Below are positions 1 through 35,908 of a stretch of 64,000 bases of DNA, piece by piece. Positions within the stretch are counted from its first letter, which is position 1. Every line of letters begins with the position of its first letter. The translations under genes and the position numbers were made by a program. The DNA comes from Schmidtea polychroa (lineage: Eukaryota): NCBI GenBank assembly GCA_044892525.1, contig CM097888.1:90644001-90708000 (forward strand), read 5' to 3'. Below the pieces are notes generated by a model. The model did not search any database. It had not been told where the DNA came from and saw only the letters and a program-made list of their open reading frames with translations.

Positions 1-1039
1 TAGGGTCGTATGGTAGGTAATATTGGGGGATTTGAGCTCTCAATTCATTAATTTCGTCTCTTAGAGCTCGAGTGATGTTCAATTCCTCGTCGAGCAGATA
101 GGTGAGATACCTTGTCTCTTCGTCTTTCGCCTCTATCTGTTTGTCTAGGGCCTTGATTTTCTCGTCGCCCTTCCATTTTTCAATTTCTATTTCTAAGTTT
201 TTAATATTTTCGGTGTACATTTTCCTTTCGTTTTCTAATTTTCTGTTTTTTCCCGCTAGGACCATGTTTCTTTGTTCCAGCGATCCTTGTAATCCATTAA
301 GGTCTCTTTTCATCTCTTCTACCTGATTTACTAATTCCACAACCCGTCCTGCTTGTTGGGTTATCATCTCTTCCATTGCGGCATTCTCGTGCTCTCTTAT
401 GTCGCACTTCATTGCCAAATGTCGCTCAAACTCCATAGCCTTTGTTTGCCAGGTTTGGCTTCGGGCGGCGACCTTTCTCAACCTTTTCAATTCTTCCTTT
501 ATTATTAAATTCTCCTCCCATTTACCTTGTTCGCTTTCATATCCGAGTCTCATGGGCAATTCTTTCATCTCTTTTTTCATTTCTCTGTTTTGTCTTTTCC
601 ATTTTCTCGCTTCTGCCACTAAGTGCATCATTTTCCTGTCTTCTATTTGTTTTTCCGCTTCGCGCTTGGTGTTCTCATCGGTAAGTCTTTTTCTCGCTTC
701 CTGCACTAGCTGCTTTAAGTAGTGGCTGTGTGCTTCTTGGCGGGTATTTTCTAGTGACGCCCATTTTGATGCTCTTTTGCATGCTTCTGCTTCCGCTCTT
801 AAGTTGTGTATTAACCATTGGTATTGACTATTCTCATCTTCTCTAGTTTCTTCGATGTGATTTCGGGTGAGATTAGTTAGTTGGAACATTACTTTGTTCC
901 ATTTTTTATTATGTTCTCGGGGAATTTGTGTCTTGTTGACATTGGTTGGGGCTATCGCAGTTTCGGTTATTTTCTCTTGTGTCATCTCTAAATCATAGAC
1001 ATCGATTAATCTTTTTATTATGAAAAGGAATTTATTCAT
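1..1039 (-). CDS. Long coiled-coil accessory ORF (MNKFLFIIKRLIDVYDLEMTQEK...), open at the window edge
   Basis: Manual translation gives ~346 stop-free codons from ATG at 1039 to the edge. It is E/K/R-rich and heptad-like, and is absent from the ORF track because it has no stop in the window. Confidence 0.8.
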   Translation of the reverse strand, partial: MNKFLFIIKRLIDVYDLEMTQEKITETAIAPTNVNKTQIPREHNKKWNKVMFQLTNLTRNHIEETREDENSQYQWLIHNLRAEAEACKRASKWASLENTRQEAHSHYLKQLVQEARKRLTDENTKREAEKQIEDRKMMHLVAEARKWKRQNREMKKEMKELPMRLGYESEQGKWEENLIIKEELKRLRKVAARSQTWQTKAMEFERHLAMKCDIREHENAAMEEMITQQAGRVVELVNQVEEMKRDLNGLQGSLEQRNMVLAGKNRKLENERKMYTENIKNLEIEIEKWKGDEKIKALDKQIEAKDEETRYLTYLLDEELNITRALRDEINELRAQIPQYYLPYDP

Positions 1040-1177
1040 TATTTACTGTTTCTTGGGAAATTTTCGCATCATTTTTGGGTTTTCGTATTTAGGGTTTTCA
1101 TACTATTATTATATAATATTTTATTGGTTATATACACCGATATATACAGATTATTATATACAACATTATTCGATTGG

Positions 1178-2566
1178 TTACTCCGTTCTACCCTTCTCCT
1201 CTTTCCTCACGGTCATCTTGATATATATGGTATCATTTCTCGCCATATCTTCTACTCTTTGTTGTGAGATGAACGTAGGTGCTCCTGTTGCTGATCCTTC
1301 TTCGTTGAGGGGCCTCTGGTAAGCTATTTGATTCCCCGTTGTTTTGAAGCTTTGCTCATGTATACTTTGGTTGTTCATCAGAGTAATATCGATTTTTGCC
1401 TGGAACGGCCATTCTAATATTTCGTCGTATTCTCCTTTACATAACAGAAAGAAAATCGAAAAGTGCGTATCCAATCCGGTTCCGTCCCCGTTGGGATATA
1501 CCTTCATTTTCATTTTGTACCCATTTTTCCAAGAATGGAATGTAGGACTTGTTATTCTTGTCTCTTCTCCGGTTTTTGCTTTTCGTATTCTTTCTTTTAC
1601 TCCCGTTATTTTCCATATGTAGGGTGCTGTTGGGGTTATCTCATTTAGATTTATTTCCCGTATTTTCTGATGTAGCTCCTTGGCCTGATTATTACTGATT
1701 TCTGTTCGGTTTATTTGCATCTTTATGTTTGCTCGGGCTTCTTCGAACGCTTCCCTTTCTTCTAGTAGTTCTTTGACTAACACTTTCAACGATGTTATCT
1801 CTATCTCCATTTGTTTTACTTTCTCTTCGCTTTCTTGTAGCGCAGTCGACCACATTTCTGCGTGAGTTGAAGCATTTTCTACTAAATGATGTGGTAACTC
1901 ACCTCGGTGTAGTAGTTTCTGACAACCCCATCTACCTAGTACACATGTCATTCTTTTCTTTGCGCATTCCCTTAGATGCTGTGCCACCTTCATTATTTCC
2001 CCTTGGTTACATCCGTTTGGGCATTCCCCACTGAACTCTGCACATACTCTCTCCTCTTGGACATTGTGATGTTTGAGGGTGAGATTTATCCACGTATCTA
2101 TTTCTCCACAGTGTTCACATCTTTCCAATCTCTCTTCACACTGCCTTTGATGTTCTTTTTCTTCGCTTGCTCGAATGGTTTTATGGCACCTTTCACACTG
2201 GCCAATTCTGTACATACATTCTCCCATATGTTGTACTACCTTCCATATTACTCCTTTCCATTCGCATGGGGCATTTTTGCATCCCAGGTTGGTGTTTAAC
2301 ATGTCTTTCACTGCGGCTTTATCCTCGTTAGTGTCTTCTAAACTCGATATTAGTGTCTCTTTACACACCGGGCACCTCTGTGGTCTATTCTTTATTGCTT
2401 CACTGATACATTCTTTACATACTCTGCATCCACATTGCGTTTGGTGAGGTTCCTTTAACAACTTTTCACATATTCCGCACATAACATGTTTGTGTATTCT
2501 GATCGTTGTAGATTTTCGGACTTGCTCGACAATCTCTCTGAACTCTTCTCTTTGTCGTTTATCCAT
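1178..2566 (-). CDS. TRAF-family protein (RING, TRAF zinc fingers, coiled coil, MATH)
   Basis: CGIC...CGCRVCKEC...CPVC RING, CxxC/H zinc fingers, and MATH motifs WKI, GYKMKMKVYPNGDG, HFSIFF, WPF. Intronless and inside the retroelement. Confidence 0.92.
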   Translation of the reverse strand: MDKRQREEFREIVEQVRKSTTIRIHKHVMCGICEKLLKEPHQTQCGCRVCKECISEAIKNRPQRCPVCKETLISSLEDTNEDKAAVKDMLNTNLGCKNAPCEWKGVIWKVVQHMGECMYRIGQCERCHKTIRASEEKEHQRQCEERLERCEHCGEIDTWINLTLKHHNVQEERVCAEFSGECPNGCNQGEIMKVAQHLRECAKKRMTCVLGRWGCQKLLHRGELPHHLVENASTHAEMWSTALQESEEKVKQMEIEITSLKVLVKELLEEREAFEEARANIKMQINRTEISNNQAKELHQKIREINLNEITPTAPYIWKITGVKERIRKAKTGEETRITSPTFHSWKNGYKMKMKVYPNGDGTGLDTHFSIFFLLCKGEYDEILEWPFQAKIDITLMNNQSIHEQSFKTTGNQIAYQRPLNEEGSATGAPTFISQQRVEDMARNDTIYIKMTVRKEEKGRTE

Positions 2567-2651
2567 TCTATAATTATATGTACAAATAGTTCTTATCGAT
2601 ACAGGTTCGATATTTTATTTACAATTATTTACATTTTAAGCTAGGTTTGGT

Positions 2652-3035
2652 TTAGGGTTCGGAAGAGTCGGCTTCGTGCCCGCTCTCCTCTCTATTCATT
2701 AGCCATTCCGACCAGTCTTCTATTTCTGTCTGTTCTGCTTCCTCCCTCATTCGGTCTATTTCAATTTCCTGTCGACGGCTATATTGGGTTATCCTCTCTA
2801 TCTCTCTTTGCATTTGTTCGATTTTTAACCTCTGGTCTTCAATTATCTTCAAATAACTAAATCCTCTGTTCATACTCTCGATCAGGTTTCTGTGCATCGT
2901 CAGTCCTTGTTCTTGCAAATTGGACACTAATTGTGCTAATACGGCACATTGTTGCTTCCATAATTCTTCAGTTACTGTATTGTGGTTCATTTCGTTATTT
3001 CCTTGATCCATTCCTAATTTATATACACTTTTCAA
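2652..3035 (-). CDS. Small coiled-coil accessory protein with acidic tail (first ATG near 3011)
   Basis: Intact ORF co-oriented with its neighbours, bounded by short AT-rich spacers. No recognisable family. Confidence 0.65.
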   Translation of the reverse strand: MKSVYKLGMDQGNNEMNHNTVTEELWKQQCAVLAQLVSNLQEQGLTMHRNLIESMNRGFSYLKIIEDQRLKIEQMQREIERITQYSRRQEIEIDRMREEAEQTEIEDWSEWLMNREESGHEADSSEP

Positions 3036-3171
3036 CTCTTATGTAAATTTAATTTTATTTTATGATTCCCGTTATTGTATAATATTGATACCGCGCTTAT
3101 ATAGAGATATGGTACTGTTATATACATAAGATATACTTACTTTTTACAATTATATACAGTCATATTCCTTT

Positions 3172-4700
3172 CTATATACGTGAGTTTGGAGGGCGCTGAA
3201 CGTTCCAGGCCTCCACCCACTGTCCTTGTTTGATATCACTTGGTCGTTTCACTCGATGTTGGAAGTTTCTGATTCGGGTCATTTCTAGTTCTCCGCGATG
3301 TCGTTTATCTTTAATTATTTTTATTGTTCCCCCCGTTATGATTAGGAATGCCCCTGTTATTATTATCCCACTGATCCACATCATCTGCTTCACGCTTATA
3401 CTCTCTGGTTTTTCCTTGTTTGTTAATGTTGATATCGCTTCTGTACTTTTCTCGTTTCCTCTTTTGCCATTTCCTTTCATCATTTCCCGTATTCTTGCTA
3501 TTTCCTCGTTCATACCCTCCTTTGCCATCTTTTGTATTTTTTCCATCTCTTCCTCCGAAACATAGTTGTCCTGAGCTTCCTCACCAGTTTTCTTGTGCTT
3601 TCCTCCTTCGTTCTTTTCGTCGTGGTTTTTTCTTTTCTTTCCTCTTTTCCCCGGGTATCGTCGGCATTCTCTTTTTGATTCAATCCTCCAGATACAAACC
3701 GTGTATTCTTTCGGCGGCTGCTGCTGCGTCACATATTGATGGCATCTCTCACCTGGTCCTAATCTTGAAATACAGACTTTGTGCTCTTTTCTAGGTTGGA
3801 TCTGCGTTATTACTACTTCACCACCTTTTCCTAGGTGTACCTCTTTTCCTTTGACGTTCGTTATTCTCTTCCCGTCTCGATTTCTCACATCCCGGCTGAG
3901 CCCCCAAAAATCATGTTGGGGTCACACCTCGGCTGACCATTCTACCATGTTGGCGGGTCTAAGGGTTGATTGTCCATCTCGAATAAAAGGTGCCACCGAT
4001 TTGTCAACCTGGAGTGAAACCCCACATAACTTTCTTCCAACATAGTGCCCGTGAATCACTTCACGTTGGTACTGCACTATGCAGGCGAGACGCCAGCAAG
4101 CAGGTGAGCTTCTGCCTTAAAACTACTCCTTGCTGAGGCTTCGACTTCCCATTCACGACTGCCGATAGAAGGGCTTACGTCCATTTCCTTACACAACCAC
4201 CTATCAGGATTCGCTGAATGCAAATTGGGAAATTCTCACTAGATCTTGCGGGTTCTCTACTCAACCCACTTAATTAAAGTCTAATTATTCATGAACGAAA
4301 ACGTGTAAGACAACAAGATTTATTAATTTCAACGTTATGACACAAGGATTCAGCTGTACACTTTACTAATGTTTGTCGAAAGAAGAGAAAACATCATAAT
4401 CAACATAGATCGGATCCTTGTTCCTCATCCTGACCGCCACTGGGGTTTTATTGTTTCTCCCATTCAGTGTCGGCGAATAATTCGTCGAGGTTGAAAAACT
4501 CGGAAGCGTTCTCTTCCCACCTTGATTTCGGTATGCTTCTTGTATTCTTACTTCTGTTATTGGTTCTGTGTCCTCATTTATCAGTACTAATTTCTGATAC
4601 GCTCTAGACATGCATCTTCCTAGTATGCACTTTTCCTTTAAGTCCCATTCTTCCTTTAAATCCCACTGCTGCTCTTGTGCTTGCTTTCTCTTTTCTTGTT
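3172..4700 (-). pseudogene. Single-pass membrane protein ORF split by a 639-bp insertion and 5'-truncated by deletion
   Basis: Removing 3885-4523 plus one GAAATC copy rejoins ...IQEAYRN|RDGKRITNVKG in frame. There is a hydrophobic segment MWISGIIITGAFLIITGG near the C-terminus. Confidence 0.8.
3885..4523 (-). mobile_element. Inserted copy of LTR 3' end + PBS (strong-stop-like cDNA) with 6-bp target duplication
   Basis: 3889-4523 matches 16530-17164 (635 bp, one mismatch seen, 4140 vs 16781). gatttc is present at both 3879-3884 and 4524-4529. Confidence 0.88.
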
Positions 4701-7700
4701 TTTGCAATTCCTGCATAATTTTTGATAAATTTGCGATAGTATCCGCATAATCCTAGAAATTCCTGAACTTGGGTGACAGTTTTCGGTGCTGGACATGTTT
4801 TTATTTTCTCAATGTTTCTTGGATCTGGCTCCTTTCCTTTAGCTGACACTATGTGTCCTAAAAACGTGACTTTTTCCTTTGCCCAATCGCATTTTGATGG
4901 TTTGAGTTTGAGTTTCCACTGTCTTAATCTAATAAATACGTTTCGGATATCTTCTAGATGTTGTTCAAATGTCGCTGAATAGATTAGTAAATCATCAATA
5001 TATACCATACATTGTTTGATTCCATGGGTGACAAAGTTCATACACCGTTGAAATGATGCTGGTGCGTTAGTCAGTCCAAATGGCATTTTCCTGAATTGAT
5101 ATAGATCTCGTCCCAACGTGAAAGCTGTTTTCTCTTTGTCCTCATCTTTGACTTTAATCTGCCAGTATCCACTTTTTAGATCTAAAGAAGTAAAATATGC
5201 TGCCCCTTGCAACATCAATAACATCTCATTGATGTCTGGCAATGGATAGGTATCTCTCTTGGTCACTGCGTTTAACTTCCGATAATCGATACAGAATCGT
5301 TGGGTGCCATCTTTCTTTTTCACCATGACCACTGGGAATTGCCAGGGTGAGCAACTTGGTTCGATTACTTTTGCGTCTAGCATCTTTTGTACTTCTGTTT
5401 CGGCTATTTCTTTCTGCATTTCTGCTAGCTTGTATGGTCTCAATGCAATTGGGGTTTCGTCTATGAGTGGTATTGCATGTAAGGTAACATCACATGTACC
5501 CAAGTCTAAATCTGAGATGGCGAATATATCTTTATATTCTACCAACAATCGGTGCAATTTTTTCTTTTCGTCATTCGTCAACAACATACTATCTATTGTC
5601 CATAATTCATCATCTTTGATCATCTCGTTGGTCACTTTCGGTAATTCTATGTCCATCATTGGGGTCAATCTTCCCAATTTTTCGTTCTCATAAATGATTT
5701 TGTCTTCCTCTTCGAAATTCGTGATGTTGAGCGGTATCACTCCTTCTTGGTTTATTGTGATTATTTCTCTTGCGAGTGGTAATTCTCGTCGCTTTTCAAA
5801 TGACTTGCTTGGTTCAAAGATAACTTCTCCTTCCATACCCGTATCCACTTTTATCTGACAAATCATCTGTGATTTTGCTGGTACTATTATTTTTTCTGGA
5901 CATCTGATGACTGAATTCATTTTGCATATTCTACCGGTTTTGTCTTTTAAGCACATGGTTGTTAAGTCAATTACGACTTCCTTTAACAATTCTGGCATCA
6001 AATCCGTTCCGATTATGCATGGTACGCTAAGTTTTGGTATTACTGCCAAATACGTTTCAATTTCGTTGTCCTGGTATCTCAATGTAGTCCACCATCTTCC
6101 GACCACGTCCACTGTTTCTTTACTACATGCTATGATGTGAATTGTTGTTGATTCGATATCCTTCCAGTGTTTACTGGGGATTTGATTAATCGCTATCGCT
6201 GATACATTAGCTCCGGTGTCTATCATAGCATTGGTTTCTTTACCATTGATTTGAATCATAACTGTTACTGCTGGACCTCCAGGTAAACTCATCGCTGCTA
6301 TTGTTCTTACGTCATCTGCTTGATCTACACTTTTGGTACGTCGTGTTGGCATATAATGCATACCGGGTTGACTCGGTAATTGCGGATACATATTTTGTGT
6401 CATGGTCAAAGCTGTTTGTGGTCCCACGATATCCGGTGGTATATAGCTTCCATTGGCGATCGAGGTGTTTGTCTTTTCCTTTTCCCAATATGGTGCCGTT
6501 TCCATTGGTTTTTCGTTTGGGTTTCTGTTTGGATAAAGACATTTATCGTTCCCGTTATCATCGTCGTCACTATCGCTGTTAGATGATTGGCTTCTAAATC
6601 GGTCCAAGAATTTTGGCTTATTCTTTTTCAATTGTCGTCTTGTTGCTTCATCGTACATTACTTTCCGGAATCGTCTGCCTACTTCCTCGTCGGTTCCTTT
6701 AATCTTTGTTAATATTTTAATCAATCGCTTTATCCGATGAATGTCTTTTGAGTGGCCATGTAATACCATGGTCTTAGCTAAAAATGGTAAGAAACCTACT
6801 ATCATTTTCCAATTAACTTTCTTTTCCCGCTTGTATATATCGAAACAAGCTAACATTTGTGTTAGTATTACTCTGACTATCTGAATTATGAGTATGATCC
6901 CTAATATCCCGGCCATCATTTGTCCAAAAACTAAGAATCTTCCCCACATTGCTTTCATCATGTTTGACGTAGCTTGTTGAAAATGGTCTGGCGATAATAG
7001 CAGCTCGTAATTCGGGCCTGATTGATAGTTTGTGCCCCCAGTTATTGTTACCATATTAGACAAAATGGATTCTCGTCTGGCTGGGAAGAGTACGTTAAGT
7101 CGTGCTGTTTCTAGATCTTCTGGGGAATACATACCACCGTTTGACACGTCTATAGGTTTGAAATCCAGCTCTGTGGCGAGTTCTATTAATCCAAATTTCT
7201 TGGGCTCCTCGGATATGGTTTTTCCCGGTAACATCATCCATTTCCCATCGGGCCTTTCATATAAAGGTCCGTATGCATTAGAACAGTTAAAGAGATTTGG
7301 GTAGAAACCCACTGGATTCATAATTCTAGTGACTGGTTGGACGAATCGATTTTGTCCTTTATAACGGATTTCTAATTCATTTGCACATCTCTTTTCGGGT
7401 AGTATGGATTTTTCTGGCATTCGTGCATACGTCTTGGTACACTGGTATGTGTACATCACTTCTCCTACCATTCTACCAAAGTGTCCATCTGGTAATGGGA
7501 GTGATGGCATCGTGTTATCTGGGTGCGTTATCGCAATAGCTAGCTTTGTTTTCAATATTTCTTTATTCAATGAACAATCGTTTTGTATTAGATCGTAATA
7601 TACTTTTTGCAAGGTCGTTTGTCCGCGATGAAATAGAAAATCCATTTTATTATTTGCATATAAGTATAGTTTTACGTCCTCCGTTGCTATCTTTCCCACT

Positions 7701-10700: not shown

Positions 10701-13450
10701 ATCTGGTGATTGTCCCACATACCCATTTCGCTTAACGAGGTGTCGTCCTCCGCTCGTAATATTATCTTATCGTACATCATGACTACATCATCCACCATAC
10801 CATCACTACTTTCGCTACGTACCTTTTCCGTTATCTCTTGGTTTATTTTTGATACCAAGTCATCCACTGTACTCTGATTGCTCATTTTTATTCGTCGTTT
10901 TTCTTCGTTCGGTAACCATATGGTTATTTCCAACCTCTGTGGCTGGGTTTCTTTTAACCTTCCATATTTGTGGATCAAATTTATGGTTCTCCAATCACTC
11001 ATTCGGAGCATTTCTGTATCTCGCAACCGGCTCATTAGTTCGTACATGGCTGGGGCTCGTCTGGTGATGAGTAAATCCCAGTTGTCTTCTACTTGTTCTT
11101 GAATTTGTTTGATCAGCTTATCCAGGTTTCGTCTCAGAGTACATTGTTTTATTTGTTCTAATTTCAATTTGATATTAAAATCATATTCGGCCTTGGCATC
11201 TTTAGCCCAATCGTAAAGGTTGGCTGGTTGTTTTTCTTTATGCAACTTCAGTATTTGCGTTTCCCCTGGCCATATTAGTGCATCTACTAAGTGCATATCT
11301 GGTTTGATCTGTTCTCCTTGGTATTGATACAGATATTCTTTCTTTCTCGAACTTCCCAAATGCTCTCGTATCCAATCGAAAAGTTCGTCGGTGACTGTAT
11401 TTTTTATCCACATTCTTTCAAGTCCTCTACTCGTTCCGATTTTTATTACATACCGCGTGGTATCGGCCTGCTTCATTTTTTCCATATAATTTTTTATAAT
11501 TGATTTTTCCTCGTTTGGTATTAAATCTTTCTCGTTTCTTTCCAATTTCATCACTTTTTGCACGAATCGCCTGAATGGTATTACGTCAATGAACTCTTGG
11601 TTCCTCACTACTACTGGGAGTATTTCCGCTACTTGTTTTATCGCTTCCTCCTTCCCTTTTCTCAACTTTATTTCGATATCCTCGTCTTCACTTTCGCTGG
11701 TTATCTCGCTTTCGCCTTCTTCCTCTTTGATTTCCCCTTTTGGAGGTTCGCTTATTTCATTCAGCTGTAGTATTTCTCCACCCAAACTACTTACATAGTC
11801 TTCTTCCTCGTCTGACGATGCTACATCTTTTGTCCTTTTCATCATATTGATTTGCAAGTTTCTCATCCTTGGTACTCTCTTTAGTTTCTTTCTTTCGAAT
11901 ATCGTTGTTTCTTCTGATTCTAATTCCTGTAGCATTTGGTGGTTTAGTTGACTGGTTTGTTCCTTGCTCTTGTTATTTTCATCTTCTGTCTCGGCTTTCG
12001 CTTTATTATGTTCTTTTTCGATTTTATCTTTTATCTTTTTCCAGAATATTTTCTGAATTCTCTGGTTTCCTTTTAAAATCGTGGTTGAATTCTCTGTTTT
12101 CATTTCCGTTGTTATTTCTTTTACCTTTTCTGGTTCAGTCATGGGTACTACCCTTGGGCTTTTCCCGTAATTGTAGCAATACTGGCTCTTCATGTCTTTT
12201 ACTAACTTCATCATATTTATTCGCAATGGTTGTTCTTGTCGTTGTTGGTTGCGTTCTTGTTTTATCCTCTCTTCCTCGGCCTGTAGCCTTTGCCATTCTT
12301 GTACATGTTGATGCACTTCATAATTGTTGAGATTTTCGGTACTCCTCATCATACGTATATTCTGGGTTTGTTGTGGTGCTGATTCTTGTCTTGGTCTCAT
12401 CATTTGTTGCATCATCTGTTTCATCTGCGAAATTTCCTGCATAACGTTCATTTGTTTTCCTTCGTTAGGGTTACTTTGTCGTTGCGGATTCGCTATATAA
12501 TTATTATTTCGCTGTGGTGGTCGTTGTTGTTGGCCCCTTTCTCGGCAATCTCTGGAGATGTGACCTGGCTGACCACAGTCAAAACAGCCTCGCAATTGGC
12601 ATACATTTTCGGTATGTCCACGCCGTCCGCAACGATTACAATTTGAATTTCTATAACAATCTCTGTCCCAGTGTCCTGGTTTACCGCATGTTCGGCACTG
12701 CTTGTTATCGTTCATATTTCGTCGATTATTGAAATTGTTCTCATTATTCGGGTTGTTACGATTACCATTATTCCCGTTTGATCGTCCTTGTGGTGGTTTG
12801 AAAATTTGGTGCGCTCCTGGTATAAATTGATTCATTTTCGGTTCTTGATTGTTGTTATCTCCGTTATCCGCTTTCGCTATTGCTGTCGCTATCCTTCCCT
12901 CCTCTTGCATAATATTCATTTGAGCTGGAAGGTGGAGCTCGCATCTTGTAGCCCAATCTATGGCTTCCTCTAATGTTTTGCACATTTGACAACCTACTGA
13001 GGCTCTTACTTCTTCTCGGCGTAATCCCTCTATGAAATAACCGATCAGATTTTCTTCGGGTAATTTTCCATTCATTGCTTTCTTCGCTAATCTCCGCAAT
13101 TCACTGGCATATAATGTTATCGATTCGTTTGCTCTTTGTTTCCTATTTGCTAGTTCGCCCAACGCCTGGTTGATTGGCTTACTGGCTCCGAAGGTTTTCT
13201 TCAGGAATGTTTTAATATCTTCCCACTTTTCTAATTTCGTGTCTCTCTCTTTAGCTTCTAAATATACCTCTAATGCACTATCGCACAAAAACAACGGCAT
13301 CCTTTTACTAATGGCTTCGGGTGTCCATCCACACACAGTGATATAAACTTCAAAATTAGTTATGAACGATGCTAGCTTGTTTGCGTTTCCGTTGAAAGGT
13401 TCTCCTCTGAACTTCTCTTTATACTCGTCGGTTTTTACGACATTCGTCAT
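4604..13450 (-). CDS. 2948-aa polyprotein Gag-Ubl x3-Bcl2-like-glycoprotein-PR-RT (RT truncated near 4700; last ~32 aa are junction read-through)
   Basis: Single ORF. CCHC x3 at ~12545-12700, DTGA at 6209-6220, YIDD at 4991-5002. RT similarity stops at KNYAGIAK. Confidence 0.93.
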   Translation of the reverse strand: MTNVVKTDEYKEKFRGEPFNGNANKLASFITNFEVYITVCGWTPEAISKRMPLFLCDSALEVYLEAKERDTKLEKWEDIKTFLKKTFGASKPINQALGELANRKQRANESITLYASELRRLAKKAMNGKLPEENLIGYFIEGLRREEVRASVGCQMCKTLEEAIDWATRCELHLPAQMNIMQEEGRIATAIAKADNGDNNNQEPKMNQFIPGAHQIFKPPQGRSNGNNGNRNNPNNENNFNNRRNMNDNKQCRTCGKPGHWDRDCYRNSNCNRCGRRGHTENVCQLRGCFDCGQPGHISRDCRERGQQQRPPQRNNNYIANPQRQSNPNEGKQMNVMQEISQMKQMMQQMMRPRQESAPQQTQNIRMMRSTENLNNYEVHQHVQEWQRLQAEEERIKQERNQQRQEQPLRINMMKLVKDMKSQYCYNYGKSPRVVPMTEPEKVKEITTEMKTENSTTILKGNQRIQKIFWKKIKDKIEKEHNKAKAETEDENNKSKEQTSQLNHQMLQELESEETTIFERKKLKRVPRMRNLQINMMKRTKDVASSDEEEDYVSSLGGEILQLNEISEPPKGEIKEEEGESEITSESEDEDIEIKLRKGKEEAIKQVAEILPVVVRNQEFIDVIPFRRFVQKVMKLERNEKDLIPNEEKSIIKNYMEKMKQADTTRYVIKIGTSRGLERMWIKNTVTDELFDWIREHLGSSRKKEYLYQYQGEQIKPDMHLVDALIWPGETQILKLHKEKQPANLYDWAKDAKAEYDFNIKLKLEQIKQCTLRRNLDKLIKQIQEQVEDNWDLLITRRAPAMYELMSRLRDTEMLRMSDWRTINLIHKYGRLKETQPQRLEITIWLPNEEKRRIKMSNQSTVDDLVSKINQEITEKVRSESSDGMVDDVVMMYDKIILRAEDDTSLSEMGMWDNHQIIRIVPMDEFRTRDVTYQKEIRDRMKTLYQKSTEIIKIHQQWLKEKELQGKITKLSTRSCRRTPWERVWNAESKEWEIRKGTFVETDIGETESESEEEEEEPPKYEEEAREQTSDDEGETDVTSESENEARHIHAMRKKEREYADMDGEEATEAREREEKERYKQLGDILAMGAKNQRRQVVALANIILKTSEDIHNLRGMAKAIEEYRQYNEWYPEQLEQIIRKWRNQEWAQDTQERYHIRIKYPDKSIEELEVHPTTKIRELKKKLAYETPFHLQLFGKSLDDNADVGITPMRLEETNVLTMAETLGKPLKRKSKIIKPTKGSLSTPSPNKAPSKSNETEEVEEIILEDSDDEPGERSPLLVRWPTGAEMWTNNQPSTSYQQPTKLNIEEIIDNTTETETDEQFQKQREPTKVTPESQTDKIIDEWNEWLRNNDSSLPRTDNERNPNYENTREAGTMMEKRAKGRPKKQGEKSEFKTKEQLKQEQGQVRLEKLDKIVWDLKEAQPTIERGEKWIRELLKDMLIITNPQLRRLWQRKVASTEARQLWHTISGIIPKLIKEKTKTTKTDWDETKRVIEQLTTNANDDEHHLVVITYLMYNLMGLAARKIPNKQFANHVEMTVSIIENTIEPHIIRAGGWKRLIQAPRKNEQERSMQVRLKKLLNELEWELPMKDPASRKASINSLMMTMMIWMLCTSGATGFTIYDCDNMIMRDKYSLRDIEECRQASPNKLDIVRTKVTYHVYQESDFIRTQARECVVSKKVLAYYCGQYSYSTLILPGLDKEIVSIQREDCKELFRTGALKMHNGVTIHGQTGMIKTESVYVSGKVKSSDGSCNGGTYTIRGEVISGVVVIESYTVELKEYEAQFDANNYQMKTNPTCRATENVCRTGVSTIIYEANTQKCRLQLLKSALFNEVKGEIYENENDEDGNDRVRMRNGKPMPPSPREKRLSTQKTPTALITDDPDLGMRFIKEKETTKCDSIVYKTNYAGIYMSRQIIDRAVGKIATEDVKLYLYANNKMDFLFHRGQTTLQKVYYDLIQNDCSLNKEILKTKLAIAITHPDNTMPSLPLPDGHFGRMVGEVMYTYQCTKTYARMPEKSILPEKRCANELEIRYKGQNRFVQPVTRIMNPVGFYPNLFNCSNAYGPLYERPDGKWMMLPGKTISEEPKKFGLIELATELDFKPIDVSNGGMYSPEDLETARLNVLFPARRESILSNMVTITGGTNYQSGPNYELLLSPDHFQQATSNMMKAMWGRFLVFGQMMAGILGIILIIQIVRVILTQMLACFDIYKREKKVNWKMIVGFLPFLAKTMVLHGHSKDIHRIKRLIKILTKIKGTDEEVGRRFRKVMYDEATRRQLKKNKPKFLDRFRSQSSNSDSDDDDNGNDKCLYPNRNPNEKPMETAPYWEKEKTNTSIANGSYIPPDIVGPQTALTMTQNMYPQLPSQPGMHYMPTRRTKSVDQADDVRTIAAMSLPGGPAVTVMIQINGKETNAMIDTGANVSAIAINQIPSKHWKDIESTTIHIIACSKETVDVVGRWWTTLRYQDNEIETYLAVIPKLSVPCIIGTDLMPELLKEVVIDLTTMCLKDKTGRICKMNSVIRCPEKIIVPAKSQMICQIKVDTGMEGEVIFEPSKSFEKRRELPLAREIITINQEGVIPLNITNFEEEDKIIYENEKLGRLTPMMDIELPKVTNEMIKDDELWTIDSMLLTNDEKKKLHRLLVEYKDIFAISDLDLGTCDVTLHAIPLIDETPIALRPYKLAEMQKEIAETEVQKMLDAKVIEPSCSPWQFPVVMVKKKDGTQRFCIDYRKLNAVTKRDTYPLPDINEMLLMLQGAAYFTSLDLKSGYWQIKVKDEDKEKTAFTLGRDLYQFRKMPFGLTNAPASFQRCMNFVTHGIKQCMVYIDDLLIYSATFEQHLEDIRNVFIRLRQWKLKLKPSKCDWAKEKVTFLGHIVSAKGKEPDPRNIEKIKTCPAPKTVTQVQEFLGLCGYYRKFIKNYAGIAKTRKEKASTRAAVGFKGRMGLKGKVHTRKMHV
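4700..6290 (-). other. Aspartic protease and reverse transcriptase
   Basis: AMIDTGANVS; PWQFPVVMVKKKDG, RFCIDYRKLN, LDLKSGYWQI, MPFGLTNAPASFQR, VYIDDLLIYS. Confidence 0.95.
6760..8660 (-). other. Chuvirus-like envelope glycoprotein with internal signal peptide and C-terminal TM
   Basis: Hydrophobic MMTMMIWMLCTSGATG then FTIYDC...SL...EC, YCG.YS, C..L..TG, DGSC.GG.Y and WGRF..FG..MAGILG TM. This cysteine/motif spacing is typical of chuviral G proteins as I recall them. Confidence 0.8.
8770..9200 (-). other. Bcl-2-like helical domain
   Basis: Ends in a BH2-like motif IENTIEPHIIRAGGWKRL (compare L..WI...GGW..F). The BH1 region is divergent (no NWGR). Confidence 0.6.
9785..11460 (-). other. Three dispersed ubiquitin-like (beta-grasp) domains in the polyprotein
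   Basis: Three ~75-85-aa blocks (~11460-11240, ~10935-10685, ~9990-9785) with a Ubl pattern (alternating hydrophobic strands, TV/IxxLxxKI helix, L.y/f.G..L.D...L). Pattern recognition only. Confidence 0.6.
12540..13450 (-). other. Gag capsid + three CCHC zinc knuckles
   Basis: CRTCGKPGHWDRDC, CNRCGRRGHTENVC and CFDCGQPGHISRDC, preceded by a retrotransposon-Gag-like region (QRANESITLYASELRRLAKKA). Confidence 0.9.
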
Positions 13451-14716
13451 GATTGGTGTTCTAGGTTCGTCTGTTTCTTTTAAATTGTCTAACGATGTGA
13501 CTAAACTTTGGGCTGATAACTCCTCGGTTGACGTTGCTAAACTATTAGTGATATCGGACAGACTTTCTCTACTTCGAGATCGACTAGGGGTATATCCGAG
13601 ATTTTCTTGGTCAAATATGGGTACTTGATTGGTTCTTCTGGATCCTTGTGATATTCCTCTTTGATGTTTAATGGATCGTCCTCTTTTGAGTTGTTGTAAT
13701 TCGTCTCCTGAAAATAATACGTCTCCTGGCTTACTAGAAGATCTAAGATTGGGTTTATCCGTGATTCCTTTCTTACGCTTCTTGGTAATTAGCGGCTATT
13801 GAATTGGACGCGTTCGGTTCTGATTGTGTTTCCTTCGATAAATATTCTGTATGAATCTGCTACTGAGATCTTCTTCCGTTCTGGAGTCTTCCGGTTGCTG
13901 TGTCTCTCGGTGCGGGTTCTGAATGGATTTATCCTTGGTTGATTGTCGATTTCTTCGAATTCCTTTTGTGCAGGTTCTGGATTGTCTTGGTTGGCTGGAT
14001 TGGCTTGATATCTAAAATGAAAAAATGATCTCGTGTTGCATTTGCTTACACGACTTCATCATTCTTTCTACAACATTCAAAAACAGACGCCTTTTAGGTT
14101 TCTGTTTGTGCTTCCCCTATCTTTTTGTGAAATCCTTTCTGCGGGTTATAATATCCCATCAGCCCGTATTTTCCGTCGATTTTAAATTATCTATCTGGGG
14201 TAGTAACAATTATCTATAAAGTCGTAGTAATTATCTATTCGTTATCAATTATAGTAAAAATAGGTCGTTGTCAGTCTCTGCTTATTACCCCCCTTCGTTT
14301 TCTTATTCCTTTGCGCTGTTGTCGCTGTTTTACTTTTCGTATTTACTATTATCCCACTCGGTTCTACTCTGGAACCGGTACAAATACATTTTCCCGGTTT
14401 ACCCCAAAAAAAATTCCGTAGAGTTTCTCTACTTCACTGGGATCCCTTTAATTAGTTAGTTACTTTCCTCTTTACTCATTATCATCATTTCATCTATTCT
14501 TTATTTTCTATTATCTCTTTAATTCGTTTCCTTCTTCCCTTTCCTTTTTCATTATAATCTTATTTTCTTTTCCACGAGCTCGTTTATTTCCTCTCTAAAC
14601 TCGAATTTTCAAAATTACATTCAATTTGTTCTAGCTAGCTTTAATATTCCATATCACTAGTAATTTAAATATTATCTCATTGTAGCTTAACTGCTATCTC
14701 TCGCTTTTCTAGGCCT

Positions 14717-15123
14717 TTACGACTGGCTGGCACTATTCAACAGCTCAATCTTCCTCCTTCCTGATCGGTTGGACTTTTCACAACTCGACCTTACGACTGG
14801 CTGGCACTATTCAACAGCTCAATCTTCTTCCTTCTGATCGGTTGGACTATTCAACAACTCGATCTTACGACTGGCTGGCACTATTCAACAGCTCAATCTT
14901 CCTCCTTCCTGATCGGTTGGACTTTTCACAACTCGACCTTACGACTGGCTGGCACTATTCAACAGCTCAATCTTCTTCCTTCTGATCGGTTGGACTATTC
15001 AACAACTCGATCTTACGACTGGCTGGCACTATTCAACAGCTCAATCTTCCTCCTTCCTGATCGGTTGGACTTTTCACAACTCGACCTTACGACTGGCTGG
15101 CACTATTCAACAGCTCAATCTTC
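14717..15123. repeat. 74-bp tandem array, 5.5 units, alternating A/B variants
   Basis: ttacgactggctggcactattcaacagctcaatcttc recurs at 14717, 14791, 14865, 14939, 15013 and 15087. Confidence 0.97.
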
Positions 15124-15495
15124 AATATTCCTCGCTCTGCATGCTTCTATTTCTCTTTTCTTCTTTTACTCTAGTTTACCATTTTCTCTGTCTACTTTTA
15201 ATTTGTCGACTTAATCTTTACCGCTTGGGAGTGTTTCCCCTTTCCCCCCTTGCTCAAAACGCACGACGATCGCGATGATCCATTTCTACCTTGGCATGGT
15301 GATCAGTCATGTCGCAAAAACTTCTCATCATATGCGATGGTACCCCGCCCTACGCTTCTTACTTGGGTTGATCAGTTATCCCCTCCCAACGGGTTCTTGC
15401 AATAAGACGTACCGCTCGAAGGTGGCTCGGTTTGTACCCCTGCAGTCTATATTGGGACTAATTCCACGTTATTCAACCCTCTCTTCATTTGATTC

Positions 15496-15496
<1 letters not shown>

Positions 15497-15532
<36 letters not shown>
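15497..15532. repeat. A36 homopolymer (U36 in element sense), flanked by attcc/ggaat
   Basis: Directly visible in the sequence. Confidence 0.9.
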
Positions 15533-15534
<2 letters not shown>

Positions 15535-15726
15535 AATAAAACAAAACAAACACGCAAATATTCATTCGTCATGCAAATTTTATTAGTCCTAATCATCAAA
15601 ACTTTTTAAAGACGAATTTATTTATCATAAACATAAAGATTGAATCATTAACAGTACGTGTTACTTCAACAATTTCATGCATTCTTGTTCAAACATCGTA
15701 TACTTGCCGTTACATCGCCGGCCGTT

Positions 15727-16212
15727 TCATTCGCCATAATAGACCATATGGGTCTCTTTTATTTCATATTTGCACATCGTGCATCTTTTTAGGTCTTTTA
15801 CACACTCTTCACAGTGACTGAGGTGTCCACACGGCAAGAATAATACGCGAATAGGACGGAGTTTGCAGGCTATACAAGTTCGTAATTGGTTAACTTTTTC
15901 CTGTATTTTTTGTTCGATTGCATCTGGTATTGTATTTAGTGAGTCTTTTAGACGCTGATAATCTAGATTTAATGTTGGGTGGTTCAATCTCTCTTGATAC
16001 CACTGATATACGGTTTCGGGGTTTATTTTTCCATCTGGGCGACTTAGGCCTGTGGCTAATATCATATGATTAGGTACGACTGGTGTTTGTCCGATTGCTT
16101 GCAGTAATATCGCGTTGATTTTTTCTCTTTTATGCGTCAGTGTTGTTAGGGAGTCGTTTTCTATATCGATAAACTTGAGCAGTTGTTGCATTTGGTTCGC
16201 GAATTCTGTCAT
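15727..16212 (-). CDS. C-terminal C3HC4 RING protein (IAP/MDM2-type RING), no BIR domain seen
   Basis: CIAC...IRVLFLPCGHLSHCEEC...LKRCTMCKYEI at the extreme C-terminus. First ORF after the PBS. Confidence 0.85.
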   Translation of the reverse strand: MTEFANQMQQLLKFIDIENDSLTTLTHKREKINAILLQAIGQTPVVPNHMILATGLSRPDGKINPETVYQWYQERLNHPTLNLDYQRLKDSLNTIPDAIEQKIQEKVNQLRTCIACKLRPIRVLFLPCGHLSHCEECVKDLKRCTMCKYEIKETHMVYYGE

Positions 16213-16529
16213 AGCTGTTGGAAAAGTAATGTTTTAATAATATGTAGTAAATTAATAGTTAATTCGTTAATTGGTTTCTTTAACCATTGTTAATTATTTA
16301 ATTTGACTACTTTATCTCCTTTATTTATATATATCCTTAATTTTTCTATTATCTACATTTTGATTTTCTCTACTTAGTTCCTAATATAATTTAATAATCA
16401 ATAGTCACTTTGCATTCGTCAAGCAATGGTCGGTTGAAAATAGAAAATCGATGTGATAAATCCCTTTAATTTTGTATGAAACTCCCGGTGAATTTCGCAT
16501 TCGTTAATAGAAATTTCGATCGACTGTAG

Positions 16530-16547
16530 ATCCCGGCTGAGCCCCCA
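16530..16547 (-). promoter_or_regulatory. Primer-binding site complementary to tRNA-Pro 3' end
   Basis: TGGGGGCTCAGCCGGGAT vs canonical Pro PBS TGGGGGCTCGTCCGGGAT (16/18), located 7 nt after the LTR-terminal AACA. Confidence 0.88.
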
Positions 16548-17088
16548 AAAATCATGTTGGGGTCACACCTCGGCTGACCATTCTACCATGTTGGCGGGTC
16601 TAAGGGTTGATTGTCCATCTCGAATAAAAGGTGCCACCGATTTGTCAACCTGGAGTGAAACCCCACATAACTTTCTTCCAACATAGTGCCCGTGAATCAC
16701 TTCACGTTGGTACTGCACTATGCAGGCGAGACGCCAGCAAGCAGGTGAGCTTCTGCCTTAAAACTACTCCTTGCTGAGGCCTCGACTTCCCATTCACGAC
16801 TGCCGATAGAAGGGCTTACGTCCATTTCCTTACACAACCACCTATCAGGATTCGCTGAATGCAAATTGGGAAATTCTCACTAGATCTTGCGGGTTCTCTA
16901 CTCAACCCACTTAATTAAAGTCTAATTATTCATGAACGAAAACGTGTAAGACAACAAGATTTATTAATTTCAACGTTATGACACAAGGATTCAGCTGTAC
17001 ACTTTACTAATGTTTGTCGAAAGAAGAGAAAACATCATAATCAACATAGATCGGATCCTTGTTCCTCATCCTGACCGCCACTGGGGTT

Positions 17089-17877
17089 TTATTGTTTCTC
17101 CCATTCAGTGTCGGCGAATAATTCGTCGAGGTTGAAAAACTCGGAAGCGTTCTCTTCCCACCTTACGCCAGCGGCTGATATGATTCGCGCTGAGGGTCCC
17201 GTTGTTAGGTCGATGGACACGTGAGAGTTGCCACCGTTGGTTGAGTCCTCTATTGATGGGATGTTTGGCTTTGCAGTAGCGCGCTCGCGCTGTCTCTTCT
17301 TGCGCTCTGCACGAGAGAGTTGTTTGCGCTTGGGTTTGCTTGAAGATGCCACTTGCAGACGGGTGACTGATACAGATGGACTAGCAGTGGGGGGCTTACT
17401 GGTACCCGTGATGACAACATCTGGACGCTTGGGGGACCATTCGGTTTCGACGCAGTCTCGGCACGGTCTCTTGAACGGTGGAGATGGATTCGAGGAAAGG
17501 TTGTGATGAGGCGGAAAGATGTCATCGGCCTCTCGGATGGGAATCTGCACGATTTTTCGGGTTGTAGCCGCCTGCACGTAAACCTTATGCAGTGCCTCGG
17601 ATTGTTCTCTGATTAGACTTCTTTGGGCACGGCTCTCAGATATTAGCGCGTCCCGGCAATGCTCGCTACGATCGAGCTTCTTTTGGATCTCTTTCATCCG
17701 AGCGGGACTAAACCATGTCCCTTCCAGCTCGTCTATCTTCCTCTTGTAACGTCCAATCTGAGTTTGTAGGTCCTTTATCACCGTATTTTTATCCGCGCAC
17801 GAGAAGCACGGCCGTAATGCTGATTTAGTGGTTGGTAGCATGCTTGCTATAAATAATACTAATGAAATGGGGAACAT
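17089..17877 (-). CDS. LTR-encoded 262-aa protein of unknown function (CxxC, coiled coil, basic arm, acidic tail)
   Basis: Intact ORF clearly paralogous to 39165-39923 (LRPC.SCADKN, EGTWFSP..MKE, EHCRD.L..ESR.QR, QSEALHKVY). Confidence 0.85.
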   Translation of the reverse strand: MFPISLVLFIASMLPTTKSALRPCFSCADKNTVIKDLQTQIGRYKRKIDELEGTWFSPARMKEIQKKLDRSEHCRDALISESRAQRSLIREQSEALHKVYVQAATTRKIVQIPIREADDIFPPHHNLSSNPSPPFKRPCRDCVETEWSPKRPDVVITGTSKPPTASPSVSVTRLQVASSSKPKRKQLSRAERKKRQRERATAKPNIPSIEDSTNGGNSHVSIDLTTGPSARIISAAGVRWEENASEFFNLDELFADTEWEKQ

Positions 17878-17959
17878 ACGATTTTAGAATAAATTAGATA
17901 CGACCCGCGTCCATTCGTGGATACTTGACCGTCGAAAAGAAGGAAAACTTATTCTACAA

Positions 17960-19545
17960 TCCGGTTTTACTACGGATCTTAGTTGTTAAAACAGTTTATT
18001 TAACCAAATGCCATCGGTTTGACGCATGTTATGAACTTTGACTATCTATTGATCTAACTGTATGCATGAGGGACGTAATAATTGATAGGGTGTAAATATA
18101 ATATTGGTGAAACAATATAATAATGCTTTAGTAGAGGGACATTATAGTATGCGACCAAACCTTGCTATATGTTATCTATTTTAATTTATTAAAAACAAAT
18201 TACTATCGCTCTCAACATATTTTTGATTCGAAATTTGTTATTGGAAGTGCACTTTTAATTCGGTAGTGAATGTGATTATCTATGTTGTCTACCATTGGTC
18301 TGAAAATATGTGATGAGTTTACATCAGCCATTACTTTAACACCCTCATGGAAAATCCCATCGGTCATAACATATCCAAATTTACGGATACTGCTGTCGAC
18401 TGGTTGATTACATTATCGACCTATTGTGAATGTCACGTGTCGCGACTACTATGTATGCTAGTCTGATATTCTGTGCTCTCACCGCATGGATTCGTGTATG
18501 GCTACTATCTTATCTCACTCACTTGGTGTATGCCATTTTCACGGTGATTTTATCGATCCTGCTGTCGTATGATTTTCTCTGCACAGTGATTTATTTGAGT
18601 TATGATTTATGCTACCGCCAGTTCTCATCGCGGAATTTTACCCTTATCAACTTGTGTGAATGATCACCATCGTTTGGAAATTTATTGGATCTTTTCAGTG
18701 ATCGTCGAGGGAATAATTCTACCAAATACTGGAGCATATTACTACTCTCGTCATTCTACTCGGATTTTCCTATTCAGATGTAATGCCGTCTCGATGAAAC
18801 CTGTCCTTTTCTCTCAGGTTCAATAATTTGGATATATACAGTGACGACCTGGCTCTTATTGTAGAAATAAATGTTATTAATTAAATTTGGTGATATTTTA
18901 CCTGTTTATAATTTTTGAAATAACTAAGTCCATAAAAACTTTCTGATTATAATACTAGAGAGGTTTTCGTAGAATCTCGCATTTTATAGTTTCGAGTTAG
19001 TTAAAGTTTTTAGAATACTTTCGTAACCTGACATACAATCTGGACAGGTTAGATGACATTGGGTCTATGATAATGGAATTTCATACGAATTTAGTTCTAC
19101 TGAGTCCGGCAAATAGACGTTGTCGCAATTAATTTGATAAAACCATGTTTCCAGATGAAGCGTACTATGAGATGTTGTTATTTTTGACGAAGTTCACTAA
19201 ATCGTGGTCTGGATCTCTTTTTTCAATAGGGGTAAGACTTACGAAAAACGACTTGACGAAAGAAGAATGCGACGCCCTCAATCACTGTGCAAATCCTTGA
19301 AAATCCCTTCATTCGTATGACTATCTTTGTGAAATCATTGTCTACCGGTTATTTTTTATCCATACCCCATTGTGATAGTTTAGTCGCATCTTCAGCGATA
19401 GGACCCGTGAAGAAGCCTTCACATTCCGGCCCAATCTAGCTGCGCGATTGAAATACTCCATGTCCACCGGCTGAGCTCCCGAAGGCACCTCATACCATGA
19501 CATGGAGTATCTCAACTCCACGTTACTCGTTAAATGAAAATTCAT
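17960..19545 (-). pseudogene. Possible decayed upstream ORF within the LTR
   Basis: Coding-like stretches interrupted by stops and frameshifts; no family recognised. A similar slot exists at ~40450-41800. Confidence 0.3.
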
Positions 19546-20733
19546 AAAATCTTTAATTCAAATAAAATACGGACATCTGGATAAAAATATTTTATTGATT
19601 CTGAAATACTTAAATAATACAAATTCCATCAATACGTTAAAGTTATTAAAATGGAGAATCAAATGAAGAGAGTTAACTAAAATGTTTAATCGTTAATATT
19701 TAACATTATTATTAGCTTTGCAAATACTTAAATAAATCTATAAACAAATGAAATACCCCTTACTATTGTTAGGCTGAGTCAAAATTCAATGTTGTTCGTT
19801 CCAAATAGTTCTAATGGTGGTCCGTTGGATGTCGATTATTGTGATGAATGGTATTTCGGTCTCTGAACTGGTTTTGAATAGTCGTGGAGTTTTCTGAATG
19901 ACGGTTGCTTGGCTAGTAGTGTCGATCCTATGAAATGCTCGGGGTTAACAGTAAAAACAGTAAACATTCTTTCTTACCTATGAAATGCTCGGGGTTAACA
20001 GTAAATTTAATGTTTTTGGTAGTTGTATATATATCAAATTCTTATTTGTGCGGACCAATCAGAGTTGAGTACCGCTTATTTCTATTAATTTAATATAATT
20101 TTCTTGTTTTTAGGTTGTTTTTTCCTTATTTTCTTTATTTTTAATATGTTTTTCTATTTATTTCCTTAATTTCCTTATTATTTCTTGAATTCCTCTTTAT
20201 TTATTTGTCAACTTGTTCTATTTTAATCTTTTCTTAATTTTATTTTTTTTTGTTTTAATTCTTATGTCTTAATTATTATTTTCCTTATATCTTATTCTAT
20301 TTTATTTCTGATTTTATTTATTTTATTTTTATTTTTCTTAATGTTCTACTTCCCTACTTTCTTATTTTTCAACGATTAAATTTTCGACTCAGCCCAACAA
20401 TAATATTATTCTTATTCTGAATTTTTAAAAATTTTCATTTGAAATTAAAATTAAATATCCTTTAAAATTCAAAATGAAACACCAACCAAAAATTATAAAT
20501 TTTTAAAGCTTCTATAATTATTCCCTGGAAGCCATTTTAATAAAATATTTATAAAATTAAGCTTCCGATAACTATTTATATACGCGATTTAAATATTTTA
20601 ATAAATGTGTAAATTTTGATTTTTAATTCCCATCTTTTGAAAGAATATTTCCTAAAATTTATATATTATTTTAATTATTACATTTTTTAATTTTTTTAAA
20701 TATTTTCTTTCATATTATCAGTTATTCTCAAGG

Positions 20734-31980: not shown

Positions 31981-31992
31981 TATAAGTTTTTT
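31950..31992 (-). promoter_or_regulatory. Predicted -1 ribosomal frameshift signal (A AAA AAC + pseudoknot)
   Basis: The heptamer is in Gag phase and -1 gives the Pol frame. After a 6-nt spacer come TGCC/GGCA and CCACTTCT/AGAGGTGG stems. Confidence 0.75.
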
Positions 31993-34721: not shown

Positions 34722-35908
34722 GTCCGATTATACAATTTCAATAAGCTGTTATTAATACGATCAGGATAAGTATATTATTTCAAAATCAAAATCCAAATAT
34801 AGCGATCAAGATTGAAAACGAATTATAATTCTCAAAAAACAACTACAATTGTAATATTTTAAAACACCCAGTTTATTCATTTAACTAAAACAAAAGAGAT
34901 TTAAATCAATTGTGTATAAATTTTAGAAAAGTAATTAAAACTGGAACAACTGAATTGGCAGTAATTAATATAGAAATAATTTTCTAGGTAAGCAATCAAA
35001 TGTAGGAAAGCGAAAATTATTACTAGAATTTCATGAAAGATTGCGGTATTAAAATGAAGTAAAATAAGAACAGACTAAATAACTGGTTTAGATTTATTAA
35101 TTTCTTCTTTTATATCTAATTCATTGATAGGGAGCGACCAATAGTTGACATCGATATAATCCTCCAAAGCATAATCAATACCCAAATTTGCCGAGTATTG
35201 ATTGGAATTGAAAGAATTGGTCGGCGACATCGAAAAGATTTCCATAACTCGTTGACCACTTTTGACAGTATTCGTTTTTCAATGAACCTTCAGGATTGAC
35301 AGTAAATATCCGTTTCGGATCTATTCCGACAGCTTGGTAAGCAATGACGTCGTTGATACTGTTACCGAAACCGGCATACAGAGGATGGACACAATCGGAA
35401 AAAAGTGATCGAACATCATTTAGACATTGGATTTTGAAATATTCCGGTTTCTTTTCAATGACTTCTCGATGCAATGATTGGAAAAGCGATGTTGGCGAAA
35501 GAAGAATCGGGTCTTCTGGAAGTTTATCGGAAAACTCCTGGACGATATCCTGGAGAAACGTTCGAGTAATTCCTGCTTGTCCGACAGCTCGTGCGGATAA
35601 ATAAATGAATCGATAGTTGTTTTGAAAGATTTTGTTTTACAGTTTCACTACTCCAGCTTGCGTCCAATCACGGCCTGGTATTGGTAGAACATGGCATCGA
35701 ATTTTCTTTACTCGTCTGAGATTGATCAATAGAGCCTGATTGATAAGTAGAAGTATTAGCTGATCGCACGAATTTTGATTGACTATAATTGTGCTCTGAT
35801 TGGTCCTTATTCGTTGGTGACCGCGCATTTATATATATAATATAATATAATATAATATAGTATAATAGGTATATAGATATTGTGAAGGCCGTGTAACGGC
35901 TCACTACA
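34566..35908 (-). repeat. 5' LTR (1343 bp)
   Basis: Direct repeat of 27103-28445, followed after 1 nt by the PBS. Confidence 0.95.
35175..35703 (-). pseudogene. Captured lipin fragment, copy in the 5' LTR
   Basis: Same sequence as 27712-28240. Confidence 0.88.

Follow-up and report, generated by a model that had tools for sequence, protein, structure and literature searches.

A stretch of 64,000 nucleotides from Schmidtea polychroa (contig CM097888.1, positions 90,644,001 to 90,708,000; hereafter the window) raised the question whether one retroelement can combine a viral-type envelope gene with genes that interfere with cell death and immune signalling. The original prediction, made from the letters of the sequence, had proposed an infectious, enveloped, retrovirus-like agent derived from Ty3/Gypsy. 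We thus asked which parts of the locus belong to one element, whether its cargo is shared by other copies, and how far the virus-like reading carries.

Extent and outline of the element

All long ORFs within positions 1–20,399 are encoded on the minus strand, in agreement with the predicted co-oriented unit of more than 20 kb. The unit is real, but its true extent is larger, since neighbouring DNA revealed a Ty3/gypsy LTR copy of 26,141 bp on the minus strand, with 5.7 kb of this length located beyond the left edge of the window. The outline within the window is as follows:

16555..20399, minus strand: 5′ LTR of 3,845 bp with 7-bp inverted termini, starting exactly at 20399
17089..17883, minus strand: 264-codon ORF within the LTR, no known family
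16530..16547, minus strand: primer-binding site for tRNA-Pro(TGG), 7 nt past the LTR end
15727..16233, minus strand: accessory ORF, IAP-type RING finger at its C-terminus (Pfam zf-C3HC4_3, 4e-11)
14717..15160, no strand assigned: 74-bp tandem repeat in the leader (repeat analysis)
4604..13795, minus strand: polyprotein frame of 3,063 codons, truncated right behind the reverse transcriptase (full-length copies: 4,732 codons)
2652..3038, minus strand: 128-codon ORF, no Pfam family
1178..2614, minus strand: intronless full-length TRAF-like gene with RING, zinc fingers, coiled coil and MATH domain
1..1042, minus strand: coiled-coil ORF of 370 codons that leaves the window

Outside the window, the coiled-coil ORF is followed by two more ORFs and then by the 3′ LTR. 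Both LTRs measure 3,845 bp, differ by 1 mismatch and show TG...CA termini. The copy is flanked by a 4-bp target duplication, and duplications of this length were found in four of four copies. The primer site represents an exact 18-nt complement to the 3′ end of tRNA-Pro(TGG), which is encoded in tandem arrays in the same genome, so that the predicted proline primer was confirmed. The original prediction had called the LTR coding; its 264-codon ORF is retained in sister families at 36–55% identity, with a pN of 0.43 versus a pS of 0.81. An Rfam scan of positions 13800–20500 yielded 0 matches at E ≤ 0.1.

A giant polyprotein with an internal envelope

The polyprotein and its detached remainder comprise the following regions, given in the order of translation:

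12540..13297, minus strand: Gag capsid region with three CCHC zinc knuckles (Retrotrans_gag, 2e-9)
11216..11473, minus strand: putative ubiquitin-like domain 1, no support alone
10661..10963, minus strand: probable ubiquitin-fold domain 2, with faint PI3K_rbd, NPL4, OTU1_UBXL and UBX matches, here or in a sister family
9776..10012, minus strand: probable ubiquitin-like domain 3 (Pfam ubiquitin, E = 0.004; ISG15 and ubiquitin variants, E 0.5–0.9)
8696..9268, minus strand: divergent Bcl-2-like helical domain (Pfam E = 0.036, below the Pfam cut-off)
6830..8650, minus strand: gB-type (chuvirus/mononegavirus-like) fusion glycoprotein by sequence family match (Pfam PF24664, Monjiviricetes_fusion, 3e-70)
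5987..6262, minus strand: aspartic protease (Pfam, 2e-9)
4706..5518, minus strand: reverse transcriptase (RT) of the Ty3/gypsy type (Pfam, 3e-35)
3172..3884, minus strand: orphaned C-terminal tail of the polyprotein, a predicted second membrane protein

The Pfam matches bore out the Gag, protease (PR) and RT assignments of the original prediction; for the knuckles, Pfam recognised two stretches, and three motifs were read in the translation. The best solved-structure match of the RT was the Ty3 RT (4e-59). In full-length copies, the frame encodes Gag, the ubiquitin-like (Ubl) region, the Bcl-2-like domain, the gB-type envelope, PR, RT, RNase H (RH), integrase (IN) and two ankyrin blocks. The order PR-RT-RH-IN was read from such a copy, as RH and IN are deleted from the window's own. 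Together with the LTRs, the target duplication, the tRNA primer site and the Ty3-like RT, this order supports the proposed Ty3/Gypsy origin.

The predicted viral-type glycoprotein was recovered by the match to PF24664. A database search returned 1,061 relatives of the envelope at E ≤ 0.001. Of 11 long relatives in the databases, 8 encode a protease behind the envelope in the same frame, and the relatives also include stand-alone viral-type glycoproteins of about 650 aa (21–28% identity). Every related coding family that we retrieved has kept the envelope. Neither a comparison of the envelope sequence with the PDB nor a word-indexed homologue search gave a match. The full-length ectodomain contains 15 cysteines and just one N-glycosylation sequon. 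Hydropathy analysis indicated a weak internal signal-like segment before the envelope (2.05 over 11 residues, 1.27 over 19), one strong membrane segment after it, and two further hydrophobic segments near the polyprotein C-terminus.

Bcl-2-like, ubiquitin-like, RING and TRAF modules

The Ubl and Bcl-2-like regions are located upstream of env, in the order expected for a Burro element, with weak scores. For the predicted Bcl-2-like domain, the match in the window is below the cut-off but the domain of a related family reached 1.4e-5. A family profile built from six sequences matched Bcl-xL at 6e-4, solely over the C-terminal (BH2-like) stretch, and the six-sequence structural model was predicted to be all-helical (pLDDT 65), which does not amount to fold identity. 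The region alone gave no match against the PDB, and neither did a word-indexed homologue search or the Atlas. A single-sequence fold of the 930-aa segment from the Ubl to the Bcl-2-like region was uninformative (pLDDT 37.6). The Bcl-2-like assignment is weak, with its similarity confined to the C-terminal part.

Three Ubl domains had been proposed. The third is backed by its ubiquitin match and the second by faint matches, but the first found no support on its own. Profiles of Ubl1 and Ubl2 gave no indication of a ubiquitin-like fold when compared with the PDB and with each other; Ubl1 and Ubl2 taken jointly fell to ubiquitin/SUMO-like Atlas clusters at 0.90, which we regard as a lead only.

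The two remaining modules were assigned with more ease, as the original prediction had them. Among solved structures, the RING ORF best matched the RINGs of cIAP and XIAP (2e-10), and no BIR was found in it by Pfam. The TRAF-like product, with its RING, coiled coil and MATH domain, matched TRAF2/3 at 8e-28.

Damage in the window's copy

Part of the locus is explained by two rearrangements:

4698..4703, minus strand: junction of a deletion of about 4.2 kb that removed RNase H, integrase and both ankyrin blocks
3885..4523, minus strand: inserted 635-bp copy of the LTR 3′ end and primer site, with 4 additional bases and a 6-bp duplication on its flanks

A remnant of 194 bp separates the two. The deletion junction occurs a single time in the genome, and the whole junction region of the insert was spanned by 1 of 40 scored matches. 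The gene content is affected as well: two of the "orphan" ORFs, at 3172–3921 (249 codons) and 4366–4752 (128 codons), are rejected as separate genes, being leftovers of the broken polyprotein and of the junctions. As a defective element, the window's copy is of little weight alone.

Reverse transcription is the most likely origin of the rearrangement; integrase already present in the particle would then have inserted the rearranged copy. For the tRNA primer of HIV-1, two stop sites of reverse transcription have been described, at positions 58 and 54 (PMC8599865). The four extra bases could be read as tRNA-templated, if synthesis had run beyond position 58 with a mismatch and ended short of position 54. 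This is suggestive only: the fit involves 3 matching bases and was spotted post hoc, and similar native flanks occur in other families. Frequent tRNA read-through in the family is rejected: of 11 matches, one was the window itself, and the other 10 were flanks native to primer sites in other families.

Young copies and purifying selection

A search of the 781-Mb genome with an RT stretch gave 835 first-look candidates, and all 40 scored matches were 99–100% identical. Three other copies of 29.8–30.0 kb were compared; they contain the 4,732-codon frame, the same RING, TRAF and 3′ ORFs, and LTRs of 3.8–3.9 kb. Exact junctions of LTR end and primer site numbered 113 and exact 3′-LTR junctions 164, both patterns also matching some relatives. 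Among the best 150 matches to the Bcl-2 region, 59 are located within an open frame of 4,732 codons; a threshold of 4,700 codons is reached by the frames of 68. From the 113 primer-site matches, 12 were sampled (every eighth of the 100 listed). Eight of these belonged to full-length elements with all 14 tested features, the giant frame being unbroken in five and broken in three. Two represented sister families with about 81% nucleotide identity and an envelope, and the last two had no matching polyprotein. The insertion of the window's copy is recent, and the family has integrated repeatedly and recently.

Related families of graded divergence coexist in the genome, with RTs 98%, 90% and 50% identical. 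One sister family (RT 90% identical) measures 35.8 kb and has its MATH domain inside a frame of about 4,790 codons. The four giant-family rows grouped with a support of 100/100 in an RT tree that was built free of named references. The same set of cargo genes in the same order was found in three of three compared copies, at 8 of 12 sampled primer sites and in sister families. The cargo is therefore a property of the family, as predicted, and not the product of nesting or of a chimeric assembly.

Comparison with a sister-family copy gave dN/dS values of 0.041 for the envelope ectodomain, 0.044, 0.019 and 0.047 for Ubl1–3, 0.066 for TRAF and 0.010 for RT; these are Nei–Gojobori estimates from single copy pairs with dS near saturation and thus rough, all pointing in the same direction. 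For the Bcl-2 region dN was 0.035 with a saturated dS. Relative to another sister copy, pN was well below pS in the LTR, RING and 3′ ORFs. The envelope, Ubl and TRAF regions are thus under purifying selection, with a dN/dS of about 0.02–0.07. Its persistence across sister families suggests that the envelope and the accessory genes work for the element.

Relation to Burro and to errantiviruses

The original prediction had pointed to the giant Burro elements of planarians for comparison. The Burro/GYPSM1 element of Schmidtea mediterranea is described in PMC6431247, which cites Grohme 2018 and Jurka 2007 and mentions a Burro-like element in Dugesia tigrina. According to that description, Burro contains Gag with three CCHC knuckles, Smc, MATH_TRAF, Ubi2/SUMO-like, BCL2 and BIR domains and ankyrins, and a mononegavirus-like env that separates gag from pol without breaking the frame. 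Such elements have been proposed to represent proviruses in integrated form that interfere with apoptosis and ubiquitination (PMC6431247, Arkhipova & Yushenova 2019).

As far as this account goes, Burro shares with the window's family a length of about 30 kb, multi-kb LTRs, one giant ORF and tandem repeats. Also shared are retrotrans_gag, the three CCHC knuckles, a coiled coil, the env ahead of PR-RT-RH-IN, ankyrins and MATH/TRAF; the putative Ubl/SUMO-like and BCL2-like domains correspond in position, at weak scores. The Burro polyprotein has 4,873 aa versus 4,732 codons here. Unlike the described Burro1, the window's family lacks MATH in the polyprotein and encodes TRAF in a complete gene of its own, located 3′ of pol, whereas the D. 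tigrina element is described with MATH in an upstream ORF. Pfam gave no BIR or dUTPase match in the polyprotein of the window's family; for dUTPase, PMC6431247 used the more sensitive HHpred. The published description of Burro1 is better fitted by the 35.8-kb sister family than by that of the window. The latter, set apart from Burro1 by description, may correspond to Burro-2, -3 or -4 and might already be shown in Grohme 2018. The layout and the provirus idea are largely in print for Burro (PMC6431247), so that the organisation could not be upheld as undescribed: the unusual layout is already published, and the family adds a further Burro-type element.

A second line of comparison is provided by Chary & Hayashi 2026, who describe Smed_errantivirus_1–6 from S. 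mediterranea with a GAG-ENV-POL arrangement and a gB-type envelope, an arrangement that is also found in nematodes and bryozoans (PMC13524379). The errantiviruses reported there from Platyhelminthes share the gB-type env between gag and pol and the many near-identical copies. By eye, the envelope rows given for Smed_errantivirus resemble that of the window, most closely no. 5, with none of the six identical. The corresponding table has no LTR or tRNA entries, and the relevant passages of PMC13524379 mention no apoptosis or TRAF cargo. Outside vertebrates, few described retroelements are as virus-like as those of the Burro type, for which infectivity and host manipulation have been proposed.

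The gypsy errantiviruses of Drosophila are also envelope-carrying Ty3/gypsy elements. They are much shorter and are not known to carry cell-death cargo. Their envelope differs in being of the F type and in occupying a separate ORF after pol (PMC6431247, PMC13524379).

Plus-strand priming

A polypurine tract beside the 3′ LTR is usual for Ty3/gypsy elements, though we did not treat it as decisive. No purine run of at least 8 nt, and hence no polypurine tract, was found in the 300 nt before the 3′ LTR. Instead, a conserved hairpin motif is present at the 3′ LTR boundary in the window's family and in sister families. Our literature search found no description of a conserved non-polypurine motif at the position of the plus-strand primer. 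The missing polypurine tract thus raises a testable question on how the plus strand is primed.

Proposed mode of action and alternatives

We consider it probable that the window holds a young, internally deleted copy of a Burro-type, env-carrying errantivirus of about 30 kb with predicted enveloped particles and cell-survival cargo. We judge it likewise probable that this putative equipment serves cell-to-cell transfer within the animal and that, in cells producing the element, it suppresses apoptosis and TRAF signalling. Full-length copies likely form the predicted enveloped particles, and the Bcl-2-like, Ubl, RING and TRAF modules are likely, though putative, factors that keep the producing cell alive. 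We infer that the polyprotein would be threaded through the ER membrane. Gag-Ubl-Bcl-2, ahead of the internal signal-like segment, would be cytosolic and the envelope would enter the ER lumen. The PR-RT-RH-IN-ankyrin portion, past the membrane anchor of the envelope, would lie on the cytosolic side and be freed by the protease that the element encodes. Such a membrane-threaded polyprotein fits the hydropathy pattern, in which a weak segment precedes the envelope, a strong one follows it and two are near the C-terminus. The cargo would probably damp apoptotic and TRAF/ubiquitin signalling, and the envelope would move the element from cell to cell inside one animal, with stem or germ cells as the destination, and not between animals. 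Drosophila gypsy, the model for soma-to-germline infection (PMC13524379), would be the precedent; beyond Drosophila, the same source calls errantivirus transmission mechanisms elusive.

The few sequons in the ectodomain would also suit a purely intracellular retrotransposon that keeps its envelope so that the polyprotein is targeted to membranes or assembled, with no role in cell entry. Barring splicing, a single frame would yield Gag, Env and Pol in equal amounts, and the literature search found no report of enveloped particles; the published passages likewise describe no particle, fusion or anti-apoptotic activity. The 15 cysteines and the strong purifying selection on the ectodomain (dN/dS 0.04) argue against this explanation, as does the retention of the envelope in every related coding family retrieved, and we regard it as unlikely. 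An exogenous-type retrovirus that crosses between animals or species, the copies being endogenised, would agree with the virus-like set of cargo genes, the very young copies and the stand-alone glycoproteins among the relatives. The coexistence of families at 98%, 90% and 50% RT identity in one genome fits long residence instead, and env and pol diverge with their hosts according to PMC13524379, which makes this origin highly improbable.

From the unique deletion and the internal LTR/primer-site duplicate of the window's copy, one might suspect that nesting or a chimeric assembly at this locus alone gave rise to the cargo. The sister copies, with the same genes in the same order at the sites counted above, led us to reject nesting or chimerism as the source of the cargo, leaving it a practically negligible probability; only the local rearrangement is locus-specific. 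The preferred reading of a cell-to-cell errantivirus falls short of the boldest form of the proposal, an infectious planarian "complex retrovirus" derived from Ty3/gypsy that would block cell death and TRAF signalling in the manner of a large DNA virus and prime its plus strand from a hairpin without a polypurine tract. We hold that form to be quite unlikely.

An expansion of TRAF/MATH genes has been reported for planarians (PMC6109357). The intronless TRAF gene, present in many copies of the element, may inflate such gene counts. TRAF-like loci outside the element were about 26–30% identical to the element's TRAF.

Boundary motif and primer usage of the element

At the 3' LTR boundary of the element, which lies just outside the window (L001:8092-8148; L numbers denote loci of the same genome outside the window), no polypurine tract precedes the LTR, as is also the case in L092, L098 and the sister families. 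Its place is taken by a motif of ~45 nt containing a 7-bp hairpin. The motif was identical in 12 copies, and it is retained with few changes in the sister families and in one non-coding relative. Nothing on such a motif appeared among the papers listed by a literature search.

The genes for the primer, tRNA-Pro(TGG), form long tandem arrays with a 475-bp unit (L019-L021), and the corresponding pattern gave 2,164 matches genome-wide. Traces of this primer may also be present in the internal LTR/PBS insert of the window's copy:

3885-4523: internal LTR/PBS insert; the 4 bases at its end fit tRNA-Pro read-through

These terminal bases can be read as tRNA-Pro read-through that carries a mismatch at position 58 and ends before position 54; for HIV-1, RT stops have been described at both of these sites (PMC8599865). 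The fit, spotted after the fact, comprises 3 of 4 bases, for which the chance is ~1 in 64, and is suggestive of an origin of the insert from a plus-strand transfer error.

Sister families and related loci

A sister family of 35.8 kb with LTRs of 5.2 kb (L053-L054, L099-L101) possesses a ~4,790-codon frame that includes MATH; downstream lies a second TRAF gene. Such long frames hold most of the genome's best 150 MATH matches, and the published description of Burro1 is better matched by this family than by that of the window. L057-L062 hold a compact family whose Gag-Ubl-Bcl-2-env-pol frame has 3,334 codons, together with further relatives. Elements in L066-L068 and L090-L092 share the LTR end and primer site of the window's family, while an adjoining matching polyprotein is absent; they are possibly non-autonomous derivatives.

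TRAF-like loci without a DNA-level match to the element (L107-L118) displayed only ~26-30% identity to its TRAF, a divergence pointing to an old capture.

Other features of the window

21433-21493: partial echo of the LTR ORF at 70% identity, directly outside the 5' LTR
27103-35908: separate young Ty3/gypsy element with two identical 1,343-bp LTRs
51706-53337: intronless rhodopsin-family GPCR ORF

The echo is perhaps a decayed related LTR. In the young element, each LTR includes a segment that matches Pfam LNS2 (lipin); a clear ubiquitin domain is present in the first ORF.
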